DNA of 64,000 nucleotides from Escherichia coli (GTDB taxonomy: Bacteria; Pseudomonadota; Gammaproteobacteria; Enterobacterales; Enterobacteriaceae): assembly GCF_009931435.1 (NCBI RefSeq), contig NZ_CP043414.1, one strand, 5' to 3'. Positions within the stretch are counted from its first letter, which is position 1; every line of letters begins with the position of its first letter. Below, piece by piece: positions 5,739 through 62,934 of this stretch. The notes below the pieces were generated by a model. That model had not been told where the DNA came from, did no database searches, and saw nothing but the letters and a program-made list of their open reading frames with translations. Both the position numbers and the translations under genes were made by a program.

Positions 5739-7424
5739 TTGAAGAAGGTTTGGCTTAACCGTTATCCCGCGGACGTTCCGACGGAGATCAACCCTGACCG
5801 TTATCAATCTCTGGTAGATATGTTTGAGCAGTCGGTCGCGCGCTACGCCGATCAACCCGCGTTTGTGAATATGGGGGAGGTGATGACCTTCCGCAAACTG
5901 GAAGAACGCAGTCGCGCGTTTGCCGCTTATTTGCAACAAGGGTTGGGACTGAAGAAAGGCGATCGCGTTGCGTTGATGATGCCTAATTTATTGCAATATC
6001 CGGTGGCGCTGTTTGGCATTTTGCGTGCCGGGATGATCGTTGTAAACGTTAACCCGTTGTATACCCCGCGTGAGCTGGAGCATCAGCTTAACGATAGCGG
6101 CGCATCAGCGATTGTTATCGTGTCTAATTTTGCCCACACTCTGGAAAAAGTGGTTGATAAAACCGCCGTTCAGCACGTTATTCTGACCCGTATGGGCGAT
6201 CAGCTATCCACGGCAAAAGGCACGGTAGTCAACTTCGTTGTTAAATACATCAAGCGTCTGGTGCCGAAATACCATCTGCCAGATGCCATCTCATTTCGCA
6301 GCGCACTGCATAACGGCTACCGGATGCAGTACGTCAAACCCGAACTGGTGCCAGAAGATTTAGCTTTCCTGCAATATACCGGCGGTACCACTGGTGTGGC
6401 GAAGGGCGCGATGCTGACTCACCGCAATATGCTGGCGAATCTGGAACAAGTTAACGCGACTTATGGGCCGCTGTTGCATCCGGGCAAAGAGCTGGTGGTG
6501 ACGGCACTGCCGCTGTATCACATTTTTGCTCTGACCATTAACTGCCTGCTGTTTATTGAACTGGGTGGGCAGAACCTGCTTATCACTAACCCGCGCGATA
6601 TTCCGGGGTTGGTAAAAGAGTTAGCGAAATATCCGTTTACCGCGATAACCGGCGTTAACACCTTGTTCAATGCGTTGCTGAACAATAAAGAGTTCCAGCA
6701 GCTGGATTTCTCCAGTCTGCATCTTTCTGCAGGCGGTGGTATGCCTGTTCAACAAGTGGTGGCTGAACGTTGGGTGAAACTGACCGGACAGTATCTGCTG
6801 GAAGGTTATGGCCTGACCGAGTGTGCGCCGCTGGTCAGCGTTAACCCGTATGATATTGATTATCATAGTGGTAGCATCGGTTTGCCGGTGCCGTCGACGG
6901 AAGCCAAACTGGTGGATGATGATGATAATGAAGTACCACCGGGTCAACCGGGTGAGCTTTGTGTCAAAGGACCGCAGGTGATGCTGGGTTACTGGCAGCG
7001 TCCGGATGCTACCGATGAAATCATCAAAAATGGCTGGTTACACACCGGCGATATCGCGGTGATGGATGAAGAAGGATTCCTGCGCATTGTCGATCGTAAA
7101 AAAGACATGATTCTGGTTTCCGGTTTTAATGTCTATCCCAACGAAATTGAAGATGTCGTCATGCAGCATCCTGGCGTACAGGAAGTCGCAGCTGTTGGCG
7201 TACCTTCCGGCTCCAGTGGTGAAGCGGTGAAAATCTTCGTAGTGAAAAAAGATCCATCGCTTACCGAAGAGTCACTGGTGACCTTTTGCCGCCGTCAGCT
7301 CACGGGCTACAAAGTACCGAAGCTGGTGGAGTTTCGTGATGAGTTACCGAAATCTAACGTCGGAAAAATTTTGCGACGAGAATTACGTGACGAAGCGCGC
7401 GGCAAAGTGGACAATAAAGCCTGA
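5739..7424 (+). CDS. fadD: Long-chain fatty acid--CoA ligase
   Basis: ORF 5673..7424; start set at in-frame TTG ([13 protein letters not shown]...) for 561 aa; AMP-binding motif [12 protein letters not shown]. Confidence 0.85.
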
Positions 7425-7443
7425 GCGTTAAGTCAGTCGTCAG

Positions 7444-7469
7444 ACGCCGGTTAATCCGGCGTTTTTTTT
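7444..7469 (+). terminator. Rho-independent terminator of fadD
   Basis: acgccgg-ttaat-ccggcgt stem followed by T8. Confidence 0.6.
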
Positions 7470-18176: not shown

Positions 18177-18431
18177 ATGAAAATTATCAGTTTTGTTCTG
18201 CCTTGCTTGCTGGTCCTGGCTGGTTGTTCAACCCCTTCTCAGCCAGAAGCACCTAAACCGCCGCAGATTGGTATGGCAAATCCGGCGTCGGTCTATTGCC
18301 AGCAGAAGGGCGGGACGCTCATTCCTGTGCAGACAGCGCAAGGGGTCAGCAACAATTGCAAATTACCGGGCGGTGAAACGATTGATGAATGGGCATTGTG
18401 GCGACGGGACCATCCGGCTGGTGAAAAATAA
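18177..18431 (+). CDS. yoaF: DUF333 lipoprotein YoaF
   Basis: 84-aa ORF with LAGC lipobox. Confidence 0.8.
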   Translation: MKIISFVLPCLLVLAGCSTPSQPEAPKPPQIGMANPASVYCQQKGGTLIPVQTAQGVSNNCKLPGGETIDEWALWRRDHPAGEK

Positions 18432-18452
18432 CCGCCGGATGCTGCACTAAAA

Positions 18453-18800
18453 TCACAAGCTACGTAGCCAGTCTGCCAGCACCAGCGCATGGTTCTGCGT
18501 GGTGTTTTTTGCTGAGTAGAGCAGGGTTAGCGGCTGTTTTTTGGCGATGTCTGCCAGCCGCTTTCCTTCTTGCTCGTGTTGCGCCAGTTCTGCAAGATAT
18601 TGCTCGCGAAAGGTTGCAAAATCGACGACTTCGCCGTGAAAGGCTTTGCGCAGTTCCGTTGACGGCGTGATTTCTTTATCCCACTCATCAAGGGCTAAAT
18701 CGGTTTTTTTGATACCACGCGGCCAGAGGCGGTCGACCAGTACGCGATAACCATCGCTCTGTTCAGCCGGATCATAAACGCGTTTGCACTGAATATTCAT
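18453..18800 (-). CDS. yeaO: DUF488 protein YeaO
   Basis: ORF 18453..18821; start set at MNIQCKRVYDP (115 aa). Confidence 0.8.
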   Translation of the reverse strand: MNIQCKRVYDPAEQSDGYRVLVDRLWPRGIKKTDLALDEWDKEITPSTELRKAFHGEVVDFATFREQYLAELAQHEQEGKRLADIAKKQPLTLLYSAKNTTQNHALVLADWLRSL

Positions 18801-20132: not shown

Positions 20133-20954
20133 ATGATGCACAGGTTGAATCTCAATGGCTATGAACCCGACCGACACCATGAAGCCGCGGTCGCATTTTG
20201 TATTCACGCCGGAACGGATGAGTTAACCAGTTCTGTACATAAGCACCGCAAAGGGCAGTTGATACTGGCACTACATGGTGCAATTACCTGTACGGTGGAA
20301 AATGCTTTGTGGATGGTGCCGCCACAATATGCGGTTTGGATACCGGGCGGGGTGAAACATAGCAATCAAGTGACAGCTAACGCTGAACTCTGTTTTCTGT
20401 TTATCGAACCCAGCGCAGTGACAATGCCGACAACATGTTGCACATTGAAAATATCGCCCTTATGCCGGGAATTAATTTTAACCCTGGCAAACAGGACGAC
20501 GACTCAGCGTGCTGAGCCGATGACCCGCAGATTAATTCAGGTCCTGTTTGATGAACTCCCTCAGCAGCCACAACAACAGCTGCACCTGCCCGTTTCTTCT
20601 CATCCTAAAATCCGCACGATGGTGGAGATGATGGCGAAAGAGCCCGTCGAGTGGGGCTCATTGGGGCAATGGGCTGGCTTTTTTGCGATGAGTGAACGCA
20701 ATCTTGCCCGGCTGATAGTGAAAGAGACGGGGTTGAGTTTTCGCCAGTGGCGTCAGCAGTTACAGCTGATTATGGCGCTTCAGGGATTAGTAAAAGGCGA
20801 TACAGTACAGAAAGTTGCACATACGCTGGGGTATGATTCAACAACGGCCTTTATTACTATGTTTAAGAAAGGCCTGGGGCAAACGCCAGGCCGATATATT
20901 GCGGGATTAACTACTGTTTCCCCACAATCAGCGAAACCAGACCCGCGGCAATAA
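20133..20954 (+). CDS. nimR: AraC-family transcriptional regulator NimR
   Basis: 273-aa ORF with cupin N-domain and AraC HTH C-domain; divergent from nimT. Confidence 0.85.
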
Positions 20955-21357
20955 GCGGGCCAACCGGTACGCCGCGAAACAGCGCCACGCCCAAAACAGT
21001 GCCCACCAGCAGCCCGGCGACCAGTTGCGGCTGGCTGCCCATTAACGTCACGCCGCGCCCACCTAGCCAGGAGACAATAACGCCTACTGCAATTGCCACC
21101 AGCGATTTCCAGTTCAGAAATGAGTGAATCAGGGTTGAGGGCGGTAGCGTCCCGCTGGCGATGGGGGCCATAACGCCAATCGTCAGAATGATTATCCCGA
21201 TACTTAGCCCCTGTTTTTCAATCCACGGGAAAAAGGTGCTTAACGGTGTGACGCGGACAATGATTAACACCAGAATTGAAACGGCGACAGTGGTGTTATG
21301 ACTGATAAAGCCCAGCGCAGCTAACCCGAGCAGGATCAGCAAAGTGACATCAAACAT
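20911..21357 (-). CDS. yeaL: UPF0756 membrane protein YeaL
   Basis: 148-aa ORF; 3-prime end overlaps nimR by 44 bp (convergent). Confidence 0.8.
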
Positions 21358-21525: not shown

Positions 21526-21630
21526 ATGAACGATCAAATGTTCGTTGAGACACTGATTATCACGTCATCGTTTTTTGTTATTGCTGTTGTGCTAGTTTTG
21601 TCCGTTCTGCTTATTGAACGGACAGGCTAG
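21526..21630 (+). CDS. yoaI: Small membrane protein YoaI (34 aa)
   Basis: Hand translation: [34 protein letters not shown]; not in ORF track; stop abuts the yeaK stop. Confidence 0.7.
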
Positions 21631-22134
21631 TTACGCAGTGCGGCGGAAATTCACCAGTTCTGGTTTCGCAATGCGCAGATAATCCGCAGTTTTCAAAATA
21701 ACGGATTTATTCAGCATGCCTGCATTAAAGGCGATTTCATCGAATCGCTCGAAGAGCAATGGGTCGGCGACCAGTTTGAGTTTTGGATGGAAGCTGAAAG
21801 GGGGGATCGCGCCAAAGACACAGCCTGTGAGTTCATCGACTTCCGCCGGGCTGGCCAACGAAGCGCGTAATCCGCCTATATGGATGGCAAGTTGGCTCAG
21901 ATCGGCCTGTTGATCGGCAGCGAGGATCGCCAGAACATGTTGATTTACGCCATTGCCTTTGACTTTACATACCAGTGCCTTAGCCCCCTGGCCTAAAGCG
22001 GTGCCACGAATTTCTGACACCGCTTCGCATTTACCTACCGCCTCATGGGTAACGACGCGGAAGTCAGCTCCTTCTTGTGATAATAAAGCGATTAACCGCT
22101 GATGCGTCACGCTTCCTTTAGCCATTTCAGTCAT
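21631..22134 (-). CDS. yeaK: YbaK/ProX-type aminoacyl-tRNA deacylase YeaK
   Basis: 167-aa ORF. Confidence 0.8.
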   Translation of the reverse strand: MTEMAKGSVTHQRLIALLSQEGADFRVVTHEAVGKCEAVSEIRGTALGQGAKALVCKVKGNGVNQHVLAILAADQQADLSQLAIHIGGLRASLASPAEVDELTGCVFGAIPPFSFHPKLKLVADPLLFERFDEIAFNAGMLNKSVILKTADYLRIAKPELVNFRRTA

Positions 22135-33736: not shown

Positions 33737-34009
33737 ATGAATCTTGATGACATTATCAACAGCATGACGCCTGAGGTATACCAGCGTTTGTCGACAGCCG
33801 TTGAACTGGGTAAGTGGCCAGATGGCGTTGCGCTGACCGAGGAACAAAAAGAGAACTGCCTACAGCTGGTGATGCTGTGGCAAGCCCGCCATAATACCGA
33901 AGCACAGCATATGACAATTGACACACATGGTCAGATGGTTATGAAGAGCAAACAACAGTTAAAAGAAGATTTTGGTATCTCAGCAAAGCCTATTGCCATG
34001 TTTAAATGA
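33737..34009 (+). CDS. yeaC: DUF1315 protein YeaC
   Basis: ORF 33692..34009; start set at MNLDDIINSM (90 aa). Confidence 0.8.
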   Translation: MNLDDIINSMTPEVYQRLSTAVELGKWPDGVALTEEQKENCLQLVMLWQARHNTEAQHMTIDTHGQMVMKSKQQLKEDFGISAKPIAMFK

Positions 34010-34177
34010 TTGAATTATTCAGCTTTTTGAGTCTGTTATTAAGTGCGAACAAAAATACTTGTTTGACGTCTTGATTGTTCGATTTAGCGGTTGATAGGTT
34101 AAATGCAACACTGACGAGTATAACCTGGCCTACGATGTCAATGAGGAAATGTAGGCCAGAGATGTATTCAACTAATA

Positions 34178-34819
34178 TTACTCCTGCGTCTCTTCCCAGT
34201 CTGCCAGCGTATATAGCGTTGCCCCAGCTGCTGACATCTCCATAAACGCGTGCGCACTGTCCTGTGGCTGGATATTCACGCCACGACAACCATCGGTAAT
34301 CACATTAACCTTATAACCTAACTGTAACGCGTCCAGCACGGTAAACTTCACGCAATAGTCAGTAGCCAGGCCCATAATGATCAATTCATCGATTTCATGA
34401 TCGCGTAACCAGTCATCGAGCGTGGTTTTCTGCCGACGGCCGTTATCAAAAAAGGCACTGTAACTGTCAACTAAAGGATTTTCGCCTTTATGGAACACCG
34501 CTGCGATCGCTTTTTGGTTCAGTAACGGATGTAATTGTGCGCCTTCACTGTTCTGCACACAGTGATCTGGCCAGAAGGTTTGTGGCAAACCGTCGAGTTG
34601 GCCTGGCGTATAAGGCTCTACACCGTGCTGACTGGCAAAACTGCCGTGATTCGCCGGGTGCCAGTCTTGACTGGCGATAACCGCTTCACCGCGCGACTGG
34701 CACCAGTCAATCAGGCGGTTAGCGACATCCACCGTACTGTCACCTTCCGGCACGGCGAGCGCGCCACCAGCACAGAAATCATTTTGTAAATCGACCAGTA
34801 ACAGGGCGCGAGGGGGCAT
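34178..34819 (-). CDS. pncA: Nicotinamidase / pyrazinamidase
   Basis: ORF 34178..34837; start set at MPPRALLLVDLQNDF (213 aa). Confidence 0.9.
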   Translation of the reverse strand: MPPRALLLVDLQNDFCAGGALAVPEGDSTVDVANRLIDWCQSRGEAVIASQDWHPANHGSFASQHGVEPYTPGQLDGLPQTFWPDHCVQNSEGAQLHPLLNQKAIAAVFHKGENPLVDSYSAFFDNGRRQKTTLDDWLRDHEIDELIIMGLATDYCVKFTVLDALQLGYKVNVITDGCRGVNIQPQDSAHAFMEMSAAGATLYTLADWEETQE

Positions 34820-42575: not shown

Positions 42576-43919
42576 TTAAATCACCCCCTGCGCCAGCATC
42601 GCATCGGCAACCTTCACAAAACCGGCAATGTTCGCGCCCTGCACGTAGTTGGTTTGCTCACCTTCACCACCATGCTCAACACAGGCATGGTGGATATCCA
42701 GCATGATGTGATGCAAACGTGCGTCAACTTTCTCGGCTTTCCAGCCCAGGCGCGCAGCGTTTTGCGCCATTTCCAGGCCGGATGTAGCTACGCCACCAGC
42801 ATTAGCCGCTTTACCCGGTGCAAACAGTACGCCTGCCTGCTGGAACAGTTCAGTCGCTTCGATGGTGGTCGGCATATTTGCCCCTTCGGCGACGGCTTTA
42901 ACGCCATTGGCGATAAGCTGATGCGCGGCGTCTACATCCAGTTCGTTCTGGGTGGCGCAAGGCAGGGCGATATCAACCGGTACAGACCACGGCTGTTGGC
43001 CTTCGAGATAGACCAGGCCAAATTCTTTGGCGTAATCTGCCACTCGACCATCGCGGCTGGCTTTGATTTCGATAAGACGTGCCAGTTTCTCTTTAGTGAA
43101 TCCGCTTTCATCAACGACAGTGCCACTGGAATCTGACGCAGTAATCACACGGGCACCAAATTCCATCGCTTTTTCGATAGCGTACTGAGCGACGTTGCCG
43201 GAGCCAGAAACGGAAACGCGCATCCCTTCAAAACCCATACCGTGGCGTTTTAGCATTGCTTCTGTGAAATAAACCAGACCGTAGCCGGTTGCTTCCGGGC
43301 GAATAAGACTGCCGCCAAAAGAAAGCCCCTTACCGGTGAAGACGCAGGCGGTATTGTTGGAGAGCTTTTTCATCATCCCCGCCATAAAGCCGACTTCACG
43401 ACCACCAACGCCGATATCACCTGCCGGAACGTCGGTATCCGCGCCCAGGTGGCGATACAGTTCAGTCATCAGGGCCTGGCAAAAACGCATCACTTCACCT
43501 TCGCTTTTTCCTTTCGGATCGAAATCGCTGCCACCTTTACCACCGCCCATCGGCAGGGTAGTCAGGGCATTTTTGAAGGTTTGCTCGAAGCCGAGAAATT
43601 TGAGAATGGAGAGGTTAACTGACGGATGGAAACGCATACCGCCTTTGTACGGGCCGATGGCGGAGCTGAACTGCACGCGCCATGCACGGTTGACCTGTAC
43701 CTGGTTGCGATCGTCAACCCATACCACGCGAAACTGGATCACGCGCTCCGGTTCAACCAGACGCTCCAGTAATGACATTTGGCGATATTTTGGATTTTGT
43801 TCAAGAAAAGGCCAGAGTGTGGTCATTACTTCACGAACGGCTTGCGCGAACTCGGTTTGATTCGGGTCGCGCTTTTGGACATGGTTGAGGAATGACTCCA
43901 GAGAATATGTCTGATCCAT
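42576..43919 (-). CDS. gdhA: NADP-specific glutamate dehydrogenase
   Basis: 447-aa ORF MDQTYSLESFLNHVQKRDPNQ... Confidence 0.95.
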   Translation of the reverse strand: MDQTYSLESFLNHVQKRDPNQTEFAQAVREVMTTLWPFLEQNPKYRQMSLLERLVEPERVIQFRVVWVDDRNQVQVNRAWRVQFSSAIGPYKGGMRFHPSVNLSILKFLGFEQTFKNALTTLPMGGGKGGSDFDPKGKSEGEVMRFCQALMTELYRHLGADTDVPAGDIGVGGREVGFMAGMMKKLSNNTACVFTGKGLSFGGSLIRPEATGYGLVYFTEAMLKRHGMGFEGMRVSVSGSGNVAQYAIEKAMEFGARVITASDSSGTVVDESGFTKEKLARLIEIKASRDGRVADYAKEFGLVYLEGQQPWSVPVDIALPCATQNELDVDAAHQLIANGVKAVAEGANMPTTIEATELFQQAGVLFAPGKAANAGGVATSGLEMAQNAARLGWKAEKVDARLHHIMLDIHHACVEHGGEGEQTNYVQGANIAGFVKVADAMLAQGVI

Positions 43920-44154
43920 AGATATAAAACCCTTATATATTAATACGATTATGCTTATGTTGTTTATGTCATGTGCTTTTGCAGTTTTCGACTATACCAT
44001 CAAGAATGTGACGGTAAGCAAGAAAAAAATGACTCACGAAAGCAAATTAATAACGGGAGAAATCTCATAACCAAAAGCGATAACTCAGACGCTAAAGTTT
44101 TGCCGCCAGGCTACCGTTATCAGTAACAGAGACAAAAACGTTAAGGAGTTCCCT

Positions 44155-44427
44155 GTGAGTCGAGCATTGTTCGCCCTAGCATTGGCATTTCCATTCATTG
44201 CACTGGCTAACCCGCATTATCGTCCGGACGTGGAGGTAAACGTACCGCCTGAAGTATTCAGTTCAGGCGGGCAGTCAGCGCAGCCCTGTAATCAGTGCTG
44301 CGTCTATCAGGATCAAAACTATTCTGAAGGGGCGGTAATTAAAGCCGAAGGAATACTGCTGCAATGCCAGCGGGATGACAAAACTCTTGGCACTAATCCG
44401 CTGGTCTGGCGGCGCGTAAAGCCATAA
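44155..44427 (+). CDS. ynjH: DUF1496 exported protein YnjH
   Basis: 90-aa ORF with signal peptide; 3-prime end overlaps nudG by 35 bp. Confidence 0.8.
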   Translation: MSRALFALALAFPFIALANPHYRPDVEVNVPPEVFSSGGQSAQPCNQCCVYQDQNYSEGAVIKAEGILLQCQRDDKTLGTNPLVWRRVKP

Positions 44428-44800
44428 ACGCCTTTAATAGTGGAATGTCAGCAGGGGCCAGCGGATATTGCAGCGCCTCTTCAGGTGAGCACCAGACCAG
44501 CGCCTGATGTTCATGTGCCTGTAACGTCCCGTGGAAGTGGGGTATGTGCCAGGCATGAAGATGGATAATCCGCCCCGAAACTTCTCGCTGATGGCTGGCA
44601 ACATACTCACCCACAGTTGCTTCGATGCCCAATTCTTCGCGTAACTCACGCACCAGCGCCTGCCGCTGGCTTTCATCCGGTTCGACTTTACCACCAGCAA
44701 ATTCCCATAATCCCGCTTGATCGCTATGCGTAGGGCGTTGCGCGATTAAAATTTTGTCATCCTGTTCGATGATGGCGGCAACAACATCAATCATTTTCAT
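44393..44800 (-). CDS. nudG: CTP pyrophosphohydrolase (Nudix)
   Basis: 135-aa ORF; Nudix box GGKVEPDESQRQALVRELREELGIE. Confidence 0.85.
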   Translation of the reverse strand: MKMIDVVAAIIEQDDKILIAQRPTHSDQAGLWEFAGGKVEPDESQRQALVRELREELGIEATVGEYVASHQREVSGRIIHLHAWHIPHFHGTLQAHEHQALVWCSPEEALQYPLAPADIPLLKAFMALRAARPAD

Positions 44801-44886
44801 AAATTACACACGGTCGAATACAGGAAAAATGCCATAATATCCGCAGTGTTGCTCAATCAGAAAGGCTTTATATTTAAGGAGTGCCT

Positions 44887-45507
44887 GTGTTAGACCGCCA
44901 TCTTCATCCCCGAATTAAACCTTTGTTGCATCAGTGTGTGAAGGTGCTGGATAAACCCGGCATTACGCCAGATGGTTTAACATTAGTGGGATTTGCCATC
45001 GGCGTGCTGGCACTGCCGTTTCTGGCGCTGGGCTGGTATCTGGCGGCGCTAATCGTCATTTTGTTGAACAGGCTGCTTGATGGTCTGGACGGCGCGTTGG
45101 CGCGGCGAAGAGGACTTACCGACGCGGGTGGCTTTCTCGATATTTCTCTCGATTTTCTTTTTTACGCACTGGTGCCTTTTGGGTTTATCCTCGCCGCACC
45201 GGAGCAAAACGCGCTGGCAGGCGGCTGGCTGCTGTTTGCGTTTATCGGCACGGGCAGCAGTTTTCTCGCTTTTGCTGCGCTGGCGGCGAAACATCAGATT
45301 GATAATCCCGGTTATGCGCATAAATCGTTTTATTATCTGGGCGGGTTAACCGAAGGCAGCGAGACGATTTTGCTGTTTGTTCTGAGTTGCCTCTTGCCAG
45401 CTTATTTTCCGTGGTTTGCGTGGGTATTTGGTGCGTTGTGCTGGATGACGACCTTTACGCGGGTGTGGAGTGGGTATCTGACGCTGAAGTCGCTCCAGCG
45501 CCAGTAA
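44887..45507 (+). CDS. ynjF: CDP-alcohol phosphatidyltransferase family membrane protein YnjF
   Basis: ORF 44881..45507; start set at second GTG (MLDRHLHP, 206 aa); motif DGLDGALAR. Confidence 0.8.
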   Translation: MLDRHLHPRIKPLLHQCVKVLDKPGITPDGLTLVGFAIGVLALPFLALGWYLAALIVILLNRLLDGLDGALARRRGLTDAGGFLDISLDFLFYALVPFGFILAAPEQNALAGGWLLFAFIGTGSSFLAFAALAAKHQIDNPGYAHKSFYYLGGLTEGSETILLFVLSCLLPAYFPWFAWVFGALCWMTTFTRVWSGYLTLKSLQRQ

Positions 45508-45515
45508 TTGCAATG

Positions 45516-46823
45516 TTATTTGCTGCTGTCCGGGCCGCGCTCACCGGTTGCTACGGGATTTTTCGGATCGCTGCTCCATTCGTACCAGCCGCCGTCGTAA
45601 ACGGAGACGTTATTCCAGCCCATTGCTCGTGCGTACATAAAGGTTTCGGACGCGCGCCAGCCGGTGCCGCAGTAGAATGAAACTTGCTGATCTGGTTTGA
45701 TATTCCATGCTTTCCACATAGCGGCAATATCATCGGCGCTACGCATGGTGCCATCCGGGTTATGGAAATCCTCCATATGCGTCGAGTCGCTACCAGCGTG
45801 TCCCCAACGGGCTCCGGCTATTTCACCTTTTGGCTTAATATAGCTGTAACCACTGGTCGTACCGATAAATTCTGGCCACGAACGAATGCTCACCAGCGAT
45901 GCATCCTGGCGATGCAGCAGCCCACGGGCCTGTTCCATATCAAGCATCAACTGCGGTTGCGCCGGGATCTTCACGCCGAAATCCGGTTCAGCTTTCACTT
46001 TCGGTGGCGTTCCGCGCTCAACAGGCAGTCCCGCGTCGGACCAGGTTTGCCAGCCGCCGTCCAGCAGGCGCACATCTTTCACCCCTGCATAGAGCATAAT
46101 CTGTGCTACACGCGCTGCTGCGTATACATCACGACCATATAGAATCACCGTGGTGTCATGACGAATGCCATGCTTTGCCAGCATCGCTTTCAGTTGTTCA
46201 TCAGAGACTTTATTCCACAGCGGTTCGCTTTCCACTTCATTGGTATCGATGTAATCCGCGCCGGGAATATGGCTGATAAGGTAAAGCTTAGGAGCGCCCC
46301 AGGCCGCTTCAATGACTTTCCAGTCACCGGCAGGTTTCGCCGTAACCTCTTTACCCTGTTGCAGGTCATGCAGCCATTGCGGATAAACCAGCTGCTCAAA
46401 GTGCGGCAGTTTTTGCAGACGGGAAGGTTCGCTTAGCGCGTCACTCAGGATGGAGATATGCGTAAAACCTGCTTTTTGCAGTCGCGTTTTGACGGCGTCG
46501 ACATCTTTGTCATTACCGTACAGCGCCACCGGAGCGTCGGTTTTCAGGTTATGTTGCTTGATCCACGCGTTGAGCTGTTCGGTGCTCATTTTGTCGAGCC
46601 AGCTAGCAGAGAGGTTTAAGGCGGCAGGTTCATGACCGGAAGGGCCATTTAAGGTTTGTGGCCAGCCGTTATAAAACGCGCTGGGGCGAGTATCTATCGC
46701 TTTGCCATTTTGTTGTTGAAGCTGGTCAAGAGTAAGAGGCTTCGCCAGTTCAGCGGCCCACGAAGAAGCGCAAGCCAGCCCTAAAGCCATTGCCAGCGCG
46801 GTCATTTGAGAAACACGTTTCAT
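45516..46823 (-). CDS. ynjE: Periplasmic thiosulfate sulfurtransferase (triple rhodanese)
   Basis: ORF 45516..46871; start set at MKRVSQMTALAM (435 aa); rhodanese active-site loop FYCGTGWRASE. Confidence 0.85.
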   Translation of the reverse strand: MKRVSQMTALAMALGLACASSWAAELAKPLTLDQLQQQNGKAIDTRPSAFYNGWPQTLNGPSGHEPAALNLSASWLDKMSTEQLNAWIKQHNLKTDAPVALYGNDKDVDAVKTRLQKAGFTHISILSDALSEPSRLQKLPHFEQLVYPQWLHDLQQGKEVTAKPAGDWKVIEAAWGAPKLYLISHIPGADYIDTNEVESEPLWNKVSDEQLKAMLAKHGIRHDTTVILYGRDVYAAARVAQIMLYAGVKDVRLLDGGWQTWSDAGLPVERGTPPKVKAEPDFGVKIPAQPQLMLDMEQARGLLHRQDASLVSIRSWPEFIGTTSGYSYIKPKGEIAGARWGHAGSDSTHMEDFHNPDGTMRSADDIAAMWKAWNIKPDQQVSFYCGTGWRASETFMYARAMGWNNVSVYDGGWYEWSSDPKNPVATGERGPDSSK

Positions 46824-46889: not shown

Positions 46890-47543
46890 TTATCGCAGTT
46901 TGTTGTAATTTTCTGACCACTGCGCCATATCCAGAACAGAACTATCAGCAGGAACATCCTGGAGATCGTGCGTTACCTGAACGACGGGGATCGCCAGTTC
47001 GCGAACTTCGCTGAACACCCACTGGCGAAAATTATCGCGCAGAGCCACATCAAGACGGCTGAACGGCTCATCCAGGAGTAACGCTTTTGGCTGGGCGAGA
47101 AGGGCGCGTAGCAGAGCAACGCGCGCTCGCTGACCGCCAGACAAAGTGGCAGGATCCTGATGGAAAGCTCCGTCAAGGCCTGAACGCTCAAGTGCATCAT
47201 TCACGGCATTACGTCGGGCATTCCCCTTAAGTGTCTCCGGTAGCGCCAGCAGTAAATTTTGCCCGACGCTGAACTGGTCAAATAACAGTGCATCCTGGAA
47301 AAGAATGCCAATCTGACGCTGTGCGGTGGGTAGCATGTCAATCCGTTGCTCATTGAGCCATAGCTCACCTGCACAAGAAAACTGTCCGGCCAGCGCACCA
47401 ATCATCCATGAAAACAGTGTAGATTTTCCACAGCCAGACGGCCCCATTAACGTGACAATGTCACCTTTATCCACCGTAAAGTTAACGTTTGTCAGCAAGC
47501 GGCTTTCTGGTAAACGTAGCGAAACATTTTTCACGCAGAGCAT
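46890..47543 (-). CDS. ynjD: ABC transporter ATP-binding protein YnjD
   Basis: ORF 46890..47630; start set at MLCVKNVSLRL (217 aa); Walker A GPSGCGKST, signature LSGGQRARV. Confidence 0.8.
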   Translation of the reverse strand: MLCVKNVSLRLPESRLLTNVNFTVDKGDIVTLMGPSGCGKSTLFSWMIGALAGQFSCAGELWLNEQRIDMLPTAQRQIGILFQDALLFDQFSVGQNLLLALPETLKGNARRNAVNDALERSGLDGAFHQDPATLSGGQRARVALLRALLAQPKALLLDEPFSRLDVALRDNFRQWVFSEVRELAIPVVQVTHDLQDVPADSSVLDMAQWSENYNKLR

Positions 47544-49078
47544 TAGCGGAGTCCTTGTCTGACATAACCTACCCATTTTGCGACTAACGCGGTCAGGGCA
47601 AAAATAATAAGCGGCAACAGTAGTTGCCATAAAGCCTGGGCGGCGAGAATGCCGTTGCTGCCGCCGCTGCTTAATGCCACCGCTTCAGTGGTGAGTGTCG
47701 GAAAACGCCCCGCGCCCAGCCACAGCGTCGGCATATACTGCGCAATACTGACTGAAAATCCCACCGCGAAGGTAATCAGCGCAGGGCGCAACATGAGTGG
47801 GCATTTCACGTAAAAGAAGATTTTGGCCCGCGACCAGCCCAGTGTTTGCGCAATCAAAATTAACCGTGAATCAATGCGCTGCCAGGCGGGTTGCAGGATA
47901 AACAGCATCCACGGCATTACCCACAGCAGATGCCCCCAGACCACCGCTGTCCAGTTCCCATCTATGTTCAGCCATAGCGCCAGCATGTACTGGCCCGCCA
48001 CCAGCGGCAGAGCGGGTAATAAAATGGGCAACCAGAGCCACAACTGGCGACGCTTTGCCCCCCATTCCAGCCACAGCAGTAACAGGACCAAAGCGATAAA
48101 CGTCGCCACCAGCCCCATTGTCAGGCTGTTGATGAGCGCTTCACTATTGATCGTCGACTGATCCGCGAGGATCGCCAGCAGAGCCACACAGAGCACACCG
48201 GTTAAGGGTAAAAAAATCGCCAGTGTATTACCGGGTAATAAAGGAGTGGCGTGCTTACGAACGCCATCTTCCTGGGGGATCGTGCGTCGCCAGGCGCGCC
48301 ATAACAGATAACCAAGCAAAACGTAGGCGGCGAGTAACAGCATCAGCAGCAGACTGGCAAGCGCGCCTTTTGTCTGTTGGTCAATGCCACCCTGGGTTAG
48401 CCACTGCCAGCTAATTACCGCCAGCGTCGGTGGATTACCCGGCCCGAGAATAATTGCCACATCCACGACCGACAACGACCATGCCACAATAGCCAGCATC
48501 GCCATTGCCAGTGCAGGCGCGACGGAGGGCAACAACAACCAGTTCAGACATTGCCAGCGGCTGTAGCCCAGCGAATCCAGTACAATAACCTGCTGCAACA
48601 GCCGTTTCTCGCTCAATACTGCCGCTAAGATCCACAGCAGAAATGCGCTTTCTTTCACCGCCAGGGTAAGGCCCAGCCCAATACCCAATTTATCCATCGG
48701 CGGAGTGAGAAAAGGAAAAACCTGATAAACCAGGCCACCTTCAGCAAACAGCAACAGGGCGCTGGTGGCAAAAGCCACATGGGGAATGGCGAGCAGCCAC
48801 GGCAGACGGGCGCACATACGCTGCCATTTCGGCCCAGGCCACAGCGCCATAACTACCAGCAGGGCAATCGTCAATGCGCCGAGCGCCGCGATGGTTGTTG
48901 ACACCAGCGTCGCCAGTAATGCCTGCGGTAGCTGCGGATCGGCAAATAACGCCTGCCAGTGTGCCAACGACAAAGCAGGCGATATCAGCGTGAACGCCGC
49001 CGGGATCAGCGGTGCATAAATCACCGCCACCATCGCCCACAGCAACAAGATTAATGCGTACCGTAACGGTGTAGCCAT
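47543..49078 (-). CDS. ynjC: ABC transporter permease YnjC
   Basis: ORF 47543..49102; start tentatively at MATPLRYALILL; stop shares 1 nt with the ynjD start. Confidence 0.75.
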   Translation of the reverse strand: MATPLRYALILLLWAMVAVIYAPLIPAAFTLISPALSLAHWQALFADPQLPQALLATLVSTTIAALGALTIALLVVMALWPGPKWQRMCARLPWLLAIPHVAFATSALLLFAEGGLVYQVFPFLTPPMDKLGIGLGLTLAVKESAFLLWILAAVLSEKRLLQQVIVLDSLGYSRWQCLNWLLLPSVAPALAMAMLAIVAWSLSVVDVAIILGPGNPPTLAVISWQWLTQGGIDQQTKGALASLLLMLLLAAYVLLGYLLWRAWRRTIPQEDGVRKHATPLLPGNTLAIFLPLTGVLCVALLAILADQSTINSEALINSLTMGLVATFIALVLLLLWLEWGAKRRQLWLWLPILLPALPLVAGQYMLALWLNIDGNWTAVVWGHLLWVMPWMLFILQPAWQRIDSRLILIAQTLGWSRAKIFFYVKCPLMLRPALITFAVGFSVSIAQYMPTLWLGAGRFPTLTTEAVALSSGGSNGILAAQALWQLLLPLIIFALTALVAKWVGYVRQGLR

Positions 49079-50220
49079 TCTTGTTCCAGCGCATTTACCC
49101 AACCTGCGTGCGGTTCAGCCAGTACCGGCGGCAGATCCTGCGGCATTCTTGATTGCAATATTTCGCGCTGCCCGTCAGGCAGTTTTTGTGGATCGAGAAC
49201 CGATGGATCGCCCCAGACAGCAGGGTCTGCTTTACGTAGCTGTGCATCAGGTGAGAGCAGGAAATTGGCAACCACCTTCGCCGCAGCACTGGCATTCGCG
49301 TTGGCAGGAACGGTGACGAAATGCACGTTGCCAATCATCCCCTCGCGAAAGCCAAAACTGTAACTGCTTGCCGGCAAATCGCCACTGGCGATTTTTTGCT
49401 GGGCATGTGCAGGATTAAAGGTCAGCGACAGGCGCAATGTGCCAGTTTTCAGCAGAGCATCCATCCGCGCGGGCGAAGGTGGGAAATCCTTTCCTTCGCG
49501 CCATAGATACGGATGCAGCGCATCAAGATATTGCCACAAGGGCGCAGTGATACGGGCGAAAGTCGCATCGTTCGGCGCTTCTTTTAATGCTGCGGGATCT
49601 GGCGTCAGCATAATCAGTAACTGTTCAAGAAATGCGGTGCCAGTAAAGTCTGGCGGGCGCGGATAGGTAACCGTGCCAGGATTGGCTTTAGCGAATTCCA
49701 GTAAGGCTTGCGGTGTTTGTGGTGGCAGTGGCGTAACATCGCGGCGGGCGATAAACGTCAGTTGTGCGCCGCCCCACGGCGATTCTGCGCCTTCGACAGG
49801 TACAGAAAAATCTTCCCGTACCGGCAGTTGTGTATCGACATAACGCCAGTTTGGCAGAGTCTCAGCCCAGCCGGTTTGCAGTAAATTGGCCTCTTTTAAG
49901 GTGCGGAAGTTTTCGCCGTTCACCCAGAGCAGATCCACCGAACCGCCTGTCTCGCGCCCGGCTGCGGCTTCGGTCTGAATGCGCTTCACCGCGTCTGCGG
50001 CATCCGCCAGGCGGACAATCTTCAGGTTTATATCATAATGGGTTTTCATCTCGCCGCTAACCCAGTCGAGATAGCGGTTAATTGCGGTATCGCCGCCCCA
50101 GGCGTTAAACCAGACGGTTTGCCCTTTGGCCTCATTTTTAACTTCCTGCCAGTCACTGGCATGTGTTGCCAGAGAAAACAGCGATAACAATCCCAGCAAC
50201 CACCCACAATGGCGCATCAT
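49051..50220 (-). CDS. ynjB: ABC transporter periplasmic substrate-binding protein YnjB
   Basis: 389-aa ORF with signal peptide; start may be second Met. Confidence 0.8.
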   Translation of the reverse strand: MMRHCGWLLGLLSLFSLATHASDWQEVKNEAKGQTVWFNAWGGDTAINRYLDWVSGEMKTHYDINLKIVRLADAADAVKRIQTEAAAGRETGGSVDLLWVNGENFRTLKEANLLQTGWAETLPNWRYVDTQLPVREDFSVPVEGAESPWGGAQLTFIARRDVTPLPPQTPQALLEFAKANPGTVTYPRPPDFTGTAFLEQLLIMLTPDPAALKEAPNDATFARITAPLWQYLDALHPYLWREGKDFPPSPARMDALLKTGTLRLSLTFNPAHAQQKIASGDLPASSYSFGFREGMIGNVHFVTVPANANASAAAKVVANFLLSPDAQLRKADPAVWGDPSVLDPQKLPDGQREILQSRMPQDLPPVLAEPHAGWVNALEQEWLHRYGTH

Positions 50221-54271: not shown

Positions 54272-60335
<6,064 letters not shown>

Positions 60336-61274: not shown

Positions 61275-62775
<1,501 letters not shown>

Positions 62776-62934
62776 TGTTGACTCCGAGTGCTGGTTATCT
62801 ATCCAGTGTAACAGGCGGGGAGCGATTAAAAAAGAGGCGGGTCGATGACAAAGGTTACACCATGAGACGTGCTACGCCTGTCAGGCCTATTCGACTCCTG
62901 CAATGTATTGAATTTGCATAGTTTTGTAGGTTGA

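Follow-up and report, generated by a model that had tools for sequence, protein, structure and literature searches.

Convergent 3' overlaps of nimR/yeaL, ynjH/nudG and ves/cho in Escherichia coli: catalogued gene ends that very probably reflect neutral stop-codon drift

The window, by which we mean the whole stretch of 64,000 nucleotides analysed here, corresponds to the E. coli segment from yoaB to nadE, onto which 63 annotated genes of strain 2020CK-00188 were mapped. Convergent genes sharing their 3' ends are present at several places along it. The first pair is composed of nimR (20133..20954, plus strand; a six-frame ORF of 273 aa), which codes for the AraC-family repressor of nimT, and yeaL (20911..21357, minus strand; 148 aa, ORF and annotation), which codes for a DUF441 inner-membrane protein; the 44 nt that they share (20911..20954) correspond to NimR residues 260-273 and YeaL residues 135-148. 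The second is composed of ynjH (44155..44427, plus strand; 90 aa, DUF1496) and nudG (44393..44800, minus strand; 135 aa, a NUDIX pyrimidine (d)NTP diphosphatase), both supported by ORF and annotation, which have 35 nt in common (44393..44427). The third, ves and cho, would overlap by 41 nt (61888..61928) if ves were intact: the undisrupted ves frame ends at 61928, and the stop of cho (61888..62775, minus strand; 295 aa, excinuclease Cho) lies at 61888. The sequence-only reading had proposed these three overlaps under the same gene names; the names are right, and the six-frame ORF list bears out the coordinates of the first two overlaps. In nimR/yeaL and ynjH/nudG, each stop codon lies inside the intact ORF of the partner. 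This is also the case for ves/cho in K-12 and other strains, where the 41-nt overlap is real, but not in the window, where ves has a premature stop.

Earlier stop codons and errors shifting the frames, which would have undermined these overlaps, were looked for by alignment and in the annotation, and neither is involved in them. The nimR gene shows 99% identity to annotated nimR, an identical protein is recorded under E. coli NimR, and most of the members listed from the 3,722-member NimR cluster also have 273 aa. Close RefSeq strains are annotated with identical overlaps of 44, 35 and 41 nt, and all three are likewise present in the annotation of K-12 MG1655 (yeaL 1874352-1874798 / nimR 1874755-1875576; nudG 1841490-1841897 / ynjH 1841863-1842135; cho 1823515-1824402 / ves 1824362-1824937). 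The junction regions have matches of 90-100% identity in more than 5,400 complete E. coli genomes. Moreover, the calling of start codons has no bearing on convergent overlaps (Palleja et al. 2008, PMC2478687). A production of the overlaps by sequencing errors, frameshifts or misannotated gene ends has thus a negligible probability: the stop codons are unambiguous, K-12 MG1655 and other strains are annotated with the same ends, the NimR length is the common one, and the alignments rule the artefact out. Nothing supporting it was found, the sole lesion at the three junctions being the ves nonsense codon, which takes away an overlap and creates none.

This lesion consists of a TGG to TGA change at codon 158 of ves (61824-61826), so that 61 nt separate the truncated gene (61353..61826, plus strand) from cho. 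The codon is TGG in K-12 and two other strains, W158 is invariant in 15 Ves homologues, and W158* removes the last 34 residues of the protein. The 251-nt stretch containing the TGA has a 100% match in none of 5,426 complete E. coli genomes, and an exact look-up of the truncated 157-aa Ves found it absent from the protein collection. The change is either a strain-private pseudogene mutation or a sequencing error.

The window is a mosaic of 86-100% identity to strain 2020CK-00188, with for example 93.6% for astB, 93.5% for yeaV, 94% for yoaB and 86% for the DUF1889 gene. The ynjH-nudG region (43900-45000) is 100% identical to 2020CK-00188 and shows 90-95% identity to 5,209 of 5,423 E. coli genomes; set against the 93-99% identity of other parts to 2020CK-00188, this indicates a putative recombinational mosaic. 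The window also lacks, at 1774-2250, the SMI1/KNR4-family gene found between yoaA and yoaB in 2020CK-00188. At 34005-34180, yeaC abuts pncA with a gap of 168 nt, and the ydjE-ydjL sugar-utilisation cluster of about 9 kb that lies between them in K-12 and 2020CK-00188 is missing; the same junction occurs in 1,089 of the 5,426 complete E. coli genomes and represents a common polymorphism. Codirectional overlaps typical of operons are present at 47543-50220 and 54308-60335: ynjB and ynjC share 28 nt, ynjC/ynjD and ydjZ/ynjA 1 nt each, and the successive genes of astCADBE overlap by 4, 4, 4 and 8 nt. Finally, two small RNAs reach the Rfam gathering score, sroD at the 3' end of fadD (7383-7468, plus strand, 115 bits) and ES036/CssrF between cho and nadE (62883-62925, minus strand, 42.9 bits).

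Eleven convergent junctions are present in the window, with gaps of 53, 135, 21, -44, 0, 50, 168, 83, -35, 8 and -41 nt, and three of them are overlapping. Other junctions are also tight, such as yoaI/yeaK (21526-22134), whose stop codons abut with a gap of 0, ynjF/ynjE (44887-46823), which converge with a gap of 8 nt, and yoaF/yeaO (18177-18800), which converge with a gap of 21 nt. The E. coli genome has been reported to contain 58 convergent overlaps (Lillo & Krakauer 2007, PMC2174442), among which the three pairs presumably figure, and 370 convergent operon junctions (Conway et al., PMC4161252). By our own estimate, three overlaps in 64 kb correspond to P ~0.06 when genome length is taken as the basis and to P ~0.24 when junctions are counted; a local enrichment was rejected as non-significant, there being at most a weak local excess.

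The overlap lengths were compared with a free-run model in which, for each of the 63 genes of the window, a convergent frame is read into the 3' end until a stop is encountered. The median free runs are 72, 49 and 59 nt depending on the phase, and a run of at least 35-44 nt is attained in 51-79% of cases. The observed lengths of 35-44 nt are therefore typical or short. All three lengths equal 2 modulo 3 and correspond to phase (123:132), in which codon position 1 faces 1, 2 faces 3 and 3 faces 2. This is the commonest phase of convergent overlaps longer than 4 nt, accounting for 49% of them across prokaryotes and for 46% in E. coli, where a stop-codon-mutation model predicts 39% (PMC2174442). 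A meaning of the shared phase was accordingly rejected, since three pairs in the commonest phase have a chance of 0.46 cubed, or about 0.1. Both length and phase agree with a frame that runs on by chance until the antisense offers a stop.

The position of the stop codons shifts between genera in all three pairs, as is best documented for nimR/yeaL. Scanning species-representative genomes for YeaL provided 80 loci, in 57 of which nimR is convergent to yeaL, including two degraded copies (L006 and L037). The 44-nt overlap is found in 13 loci, from the Citrobacter freundii complex and relatives, plus the window, while an overlap of 17 nt is found in 27, from Klebsiella, Enterobacter, Raoultella, Kluyvera, Leclercia, Lelliottia and others, as well as a divergent “E. 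coli E69”. The remaining arrangements are overlaps of 20-21 nt (four loci; C. amalonaticus and S. diarizonae), 6 nt (two loci; Trabulsiella), 45 nt (one locus; Yokenella) and 0 nt (two loci; S. arizonae and L006, the latter with a nimR remnant only), gaps of 1-5 nt (seven loci; Cedecea, C. werkmanii and Buttiauxella) and gaps of 122-216 nt (four loci; various taxa). The difference between 17 and 44 nt lies in a single nimR codon: in an alignment of 23 species, the 17-nt class has a stop, TAA or TGA, at codon 265 (20925..20927, plus strand), where E. coli has CAA and reads nine more codons before the next stop. The stop shifts of the orthologues stay in frame, with no frameshift.

The presence of nimR is itself not universal in Escherichia. 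In Escherichia sp. MOD1-EC7003 (L006, ~2473-2620), only a remnant is left, in which residues ~2-42 are joined to the last codons through an internal deletion at a GCCAG microhomology. No NimR match was found beside yeaL in E. albertii, E. whittamii, Escherichia sp. E1V33 and L008, an E. coli-labelled contig of strain SCPM-O-B-8794 (L008-L011).

It had also been proposed from the sequence that such overlaps constrain the C-termini of both proteins, and this proved half right, because in the two pairs that were tested, nimR/yeaL and nudG/ynjH, the constraint falls on one partner only. According to Pfam, DUF441 covers residues 7-145 of the 148 of YeaL and runs through the overlap, whereas the HTH_18 domain of NimR ends at residue 255-256 of 273, upstream of it. 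All 14 sequences compared in the 44-nt class have the same YeaL tail, against 12 variants of the NimR tail. The third-position entropy of yeaL is 0.85 bits in the nine extra overlapped codons against 0.95 bits in non-overlapped codons, so that synonymous diversity is not reduced there. Since yeaL third positions face nimR second positions in this phase, the NimR tail varies with the synonymous drift of yeaL, and as its residues change freely in this way, it is a passenger. Where nimR is present, the synonymous diversity of the last five yeaL codons is 0.38-0.62 bits, against 1.25, a comparison that concerns five codons, is confounded by phylogeny and draws on differently sampled clades.

A similar situation is observed for nudG/ynjH, with few genera compared. 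DUF1496 covers residues 33-89 of the 90 of YnjH and runs through the overlap, whereas the NUDIX domain ends at residue 124 of the 135 of NudG, before it (Pfam). In Phytobacter, 26 nt are shared, against 35 nt in E. coli and 41 nt in both E. fergusonii and Salmonella; NudG homologues end in ...RAAR, ...RAARPAD or ...RAARPADSC/SY, and the tails differ by -5, 0 or +2 residues. Looking up the context of the C. amalonaticus NudG (P0095) yielded no recorded gene. The YnjH tail NPLVWRRVKP stays nearly invariant among these few genera while the NudG stop shifts. The NudG tail RAARPAD is fairly conserved, which can be explained by the conserved YnjH tail encoded on the opposite strand.

For ves/cho, the HutD domain of Ves ends at residue 175 of 191 (Pfam), so that the Ves tail likewise lies outside its domain; no match to Cho was obtained in the Pfam copy searched. 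Ves homologues have 185, 191 or 200 aa and Cho homologues 287 or 295 aa. In an enterobacterial metagenome contig (L092), a Ves of 185 aa and a Cho of 287 aa overlap by 4 nt (TTAA), and the E. coli tails of both proteins are longer than these. The cho gene is absent in Salmonella, yet Ves still has 191 aa there, and it is also absent from the contig encoding the 200-aa Ves. In Salmonella enterica (L091), nadE follows ves with no cho in between, and the ves stop is directly followed (2076-2140) by a palindromic REP-like sequence (GTGCCGGATAAG...CTTATCCGGCAC-like).

We then considered whether the shared ends contain termination signals. A candidate terminator-like hairpin was identified by pattern scan on the minus strand at 20871..20892, with a stem of 7 bp (6 GC) followed by TTTCTT. 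Located 19 nt past the yeaL stop, it occupies nimR codons that specify KGLGQTPGR, and the AraC-family motif codons of nimR may thus form the terminator of yeaL on the opposite strand (20892..20871 plus TTTCTT). This dual coding, which is compatible with the neutral-drift explanation, appears to us a tentative idea that is somewhat unlikely to hold. The hairpin and its T-run are placed as expected, and the stem is among the most stable 2-5% of 1,000 synonymous recodings in Escherichia, Citrobacter and Salmonella, in other words more stable than ~95-98% of them. In addition, antisense RNA over nimR is very low in K-12 (0.84 RPM against 17.6 RPM for sense), and there is a precedent in that 20% of the E. 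coli genes in convergent overlaps contain a predicted rho-independent terminator of their partner (PMC2174442). Other observations speak against it. The protein motif largely forces the hairpin, about one in five sets of synonymous choices giving the full stem by our own estimate from typical E. coli codon usage; in none of the other eight genera tested, Klebsiella, Enterobacter and Raoultella among them, does its stability stand out; and Escherichia, Citrobacter and Salmonella are related and so do not provide independent support. Weak expression of yeaL alone could explain the low antisense signal over nimR.

Terminator-like matches in the three regions are not more numerous than in shuffled sequences (3 against 2.2 in the yeaL region), and none was found by pattern scan at ynjH/nudG. 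The fold z-scores of ~150 nt per junction on both strands range from -0.08 to -2.0 and are not convincing against shuffles, the value of -2.0 being that of a hairpin downstream of cho. No known RNA family was detected by Rfam at any of the three junctions. The Term-seq supplements of PMC7815308 have no entry for the 3' ends of yeaL, nimR, nudG, ynjH and cho, the only nearby one being the spy terminator upstream of ves, and the Term-seq paper PMC12207403 contains nothing relevant to 3' ends at these junctions. The yeaL hairpin is a candidate embedded terminator, nothing more.

Read on the antisense strand, the AraC-family C-terminal motif at 20862-20900 gives a GC hairpin and then a T-run, the G-L-G and P-G-R codons being self-complementary and K-K giving YTTYTT. 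Judging from these codons, a pseudo-terminator of this kind might be provided by any AraC-family gene to a gene converging on it.

The transcripts of these genes overlap well beyond the shared codons. An mRNA has to extend at least as far as its own stop codon, so that the 3' ends of the two transcripts of a pair are complementary, and the antisense 3' interactions that had been predicted from the sequence are supported by published K-12 data (PMC12288877, PMC7373196). The list of 165 convergent excludons in MG1655 (ExcludonFinder, Table 1, PMC12288877) includes cho-ves, nudG-ynjH and yeaL-nimR, together with their neighbours ynjE-ynjF, yeaK-yoaI and yeaO-yoaF, whose coding sequences do not overlap. 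In wild-type K-12, the sense and antisense values given by Huang et al. (Table S1c, PMC7373196) are 9.0 and 45.4 RPM for nudG, 80.0 and 2.7 for ynjH, 7.9 and 19.2 for cho, 156.7 and 4.7 for ves, 4.5 and 2.9 for yeaL, and 17.6 and 0.84 for nimR. RNase III products captured by p19 lie inside cho and ves, 140-450 nt from their stops (PMC7373196). Antisense RNA across the weaker partner is thus real and reaches far beyond the CDS overlap, which guarantees a complementarity of at least 35-44 nt but does not create antisense transcription. Transcripts overlap at their 3' ends at 276 of 370 convergent operons (~75%), over 286 nt on average (Conway et al., PMC4161252), and the long transcript overlap at the present junctions is a generic behaviour of convergent operons and not a consequence of the shared codons.

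These data also bear on a functional excludon, in which selection would maintain the overlaps because convergent transcription, by letting RNA polymerases collide and RNase III cut the RNA duplex, would allow only one of the two genes to be expressed at a time, for example ynjH or nudG, and ves or the SOS-induced cho. The inclusion of all three pairs in the MG1655 list, the excess of antisense over sense RNA on nudG and cho, the captured double-stranded RNA in cho and ves, and the conservation of the convergent arrangement in many Enterobacteriaceae speak in favor of such a function. We regard it as quite improbable, as overlap length is not conserved and is zero or replaced by gaps in several genera, transcripts overlap at about three quarters of convergent operons whether or not their coding sequences do, and the captured RNAs lie far outside the 41 nt shared by cho and ves. 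Furthermore, no reciprocal regulation or mutually exclusive expression was found for these pairs in the literature covered. We know of no functional link between the paired genes.

The explanation that we favor is that these are ordinary convergent CDS overlaps arisen by neutral drift of the stop codon, which is very probably correct. The genes of each pair lie end to end with almost no spacer. When a stop is lost or moved, the frame would read the antisense of its neighbour up to the next chance in-frame stop, which would add a few residues past the last conserved domain, and such an extension would be tolerated, being functionally irrelevant. In nimR/yeaL and nudG/ynjH, the result would be a passenger tail whose sequence is dictated by the codons of the neighbour. 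Convergent overlaps have indeed been attributed to 3' extension following stop loss (PMC2174442; PMC2478687). The overlaps analysed here are real, their lengths vary among genera and fit the chance model, and the tail of one partner is unconstrained in nimR/yeaL and nudG/ynjH. The extended tails lie outside the conserved domain and are devoid of a constraint of their own, less firmly so for NudG and Ves, for which few genera were compared. From this we infer that the tails are neutral.

Some observations argue against neutrality. Many genera have kept the tight convergent arrangement, possibly through selection acting on the junction, the synonymous sites of the last five yeaL codons are less diverse where nimR is present, and the NudG tail RAARPAD is fairly conserved. 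The published excludon listing and the antisense RNA exceeding sense over nudG and cho make a regulatory role possible as well. One may imagine that the stop position or overlap length is not neutral and tunes an excludon-type reciprocal switch or a dual-coded terminator, which we consider very unlikely. If it were true, the nimR AraC-family HTH motif would for instance double as the yeaL terminator, or high transcription of ves and ynjH would silence the weakly expressed cho and nudG through antisense RNA and RNase III.

Under the favored explanation of neutral drift, the last 9-14 residues of NimR and NudG are probably a passenger sequence that the proteins can do without. The feature is already known, being catalogued and statistically ordinary, and it matters little: the three overlaps belong to the reference annotation of K-12, agree with the statistics published for convergent overlaps, and figure in a published list of pairs with overlapping transcripts. 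Two practical consequences can be mentioned: the overlaps are no product of misannotation and there is no reason to “correct” them, and deletions or 3'-end tags at these junctions affect two genes at once.

Three known systems can be compared with these pairs. Overlapping bidirectional terminators between convergent genes were reportedly described by Ju et al. 2019. As in the examples of this type (e.g. ynaJ-uspE; Wang et al. preprint 10.1101/2022.10.23.513370), there is no room here for two intergenic terminators. Candidate hairpins are present close to the yeaL junction and on the downstream side of cho, and none was found at ynjH/nudG. In contrast with this type, the junction fold energies are not distinguishable from those of shuffled sequences. 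Excludons are defined by transcript overlap (PMC12288877), whereas the present pairs were noted by the overlap of their coding sequences. As in convergent excludons, the genes here are adjacent, lie on opposite strands and have their 3' ends facing each other. One difference concerns cho-ves, which is listed among the convergent excludons of MG1655, while ves reads as a pseudogene in the window. Finally, convergent overlapping gene pairs arising by stop-codon mutation are said to have been described in prokaryotes by Fukuda et al. 2003. Compared with pairs of this type (PMC2174442; PMC2478687), those of the window are likewise composed of intact ORFs on opposite strands sharing their 3' ends, with the exception of the truncated ves. 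Their overlaps are similarly shorter than 60 nt, in phase (123:132), with a stop that varies among orthologues and an extension past the conserved domain, and they display no substantive difference from this class.
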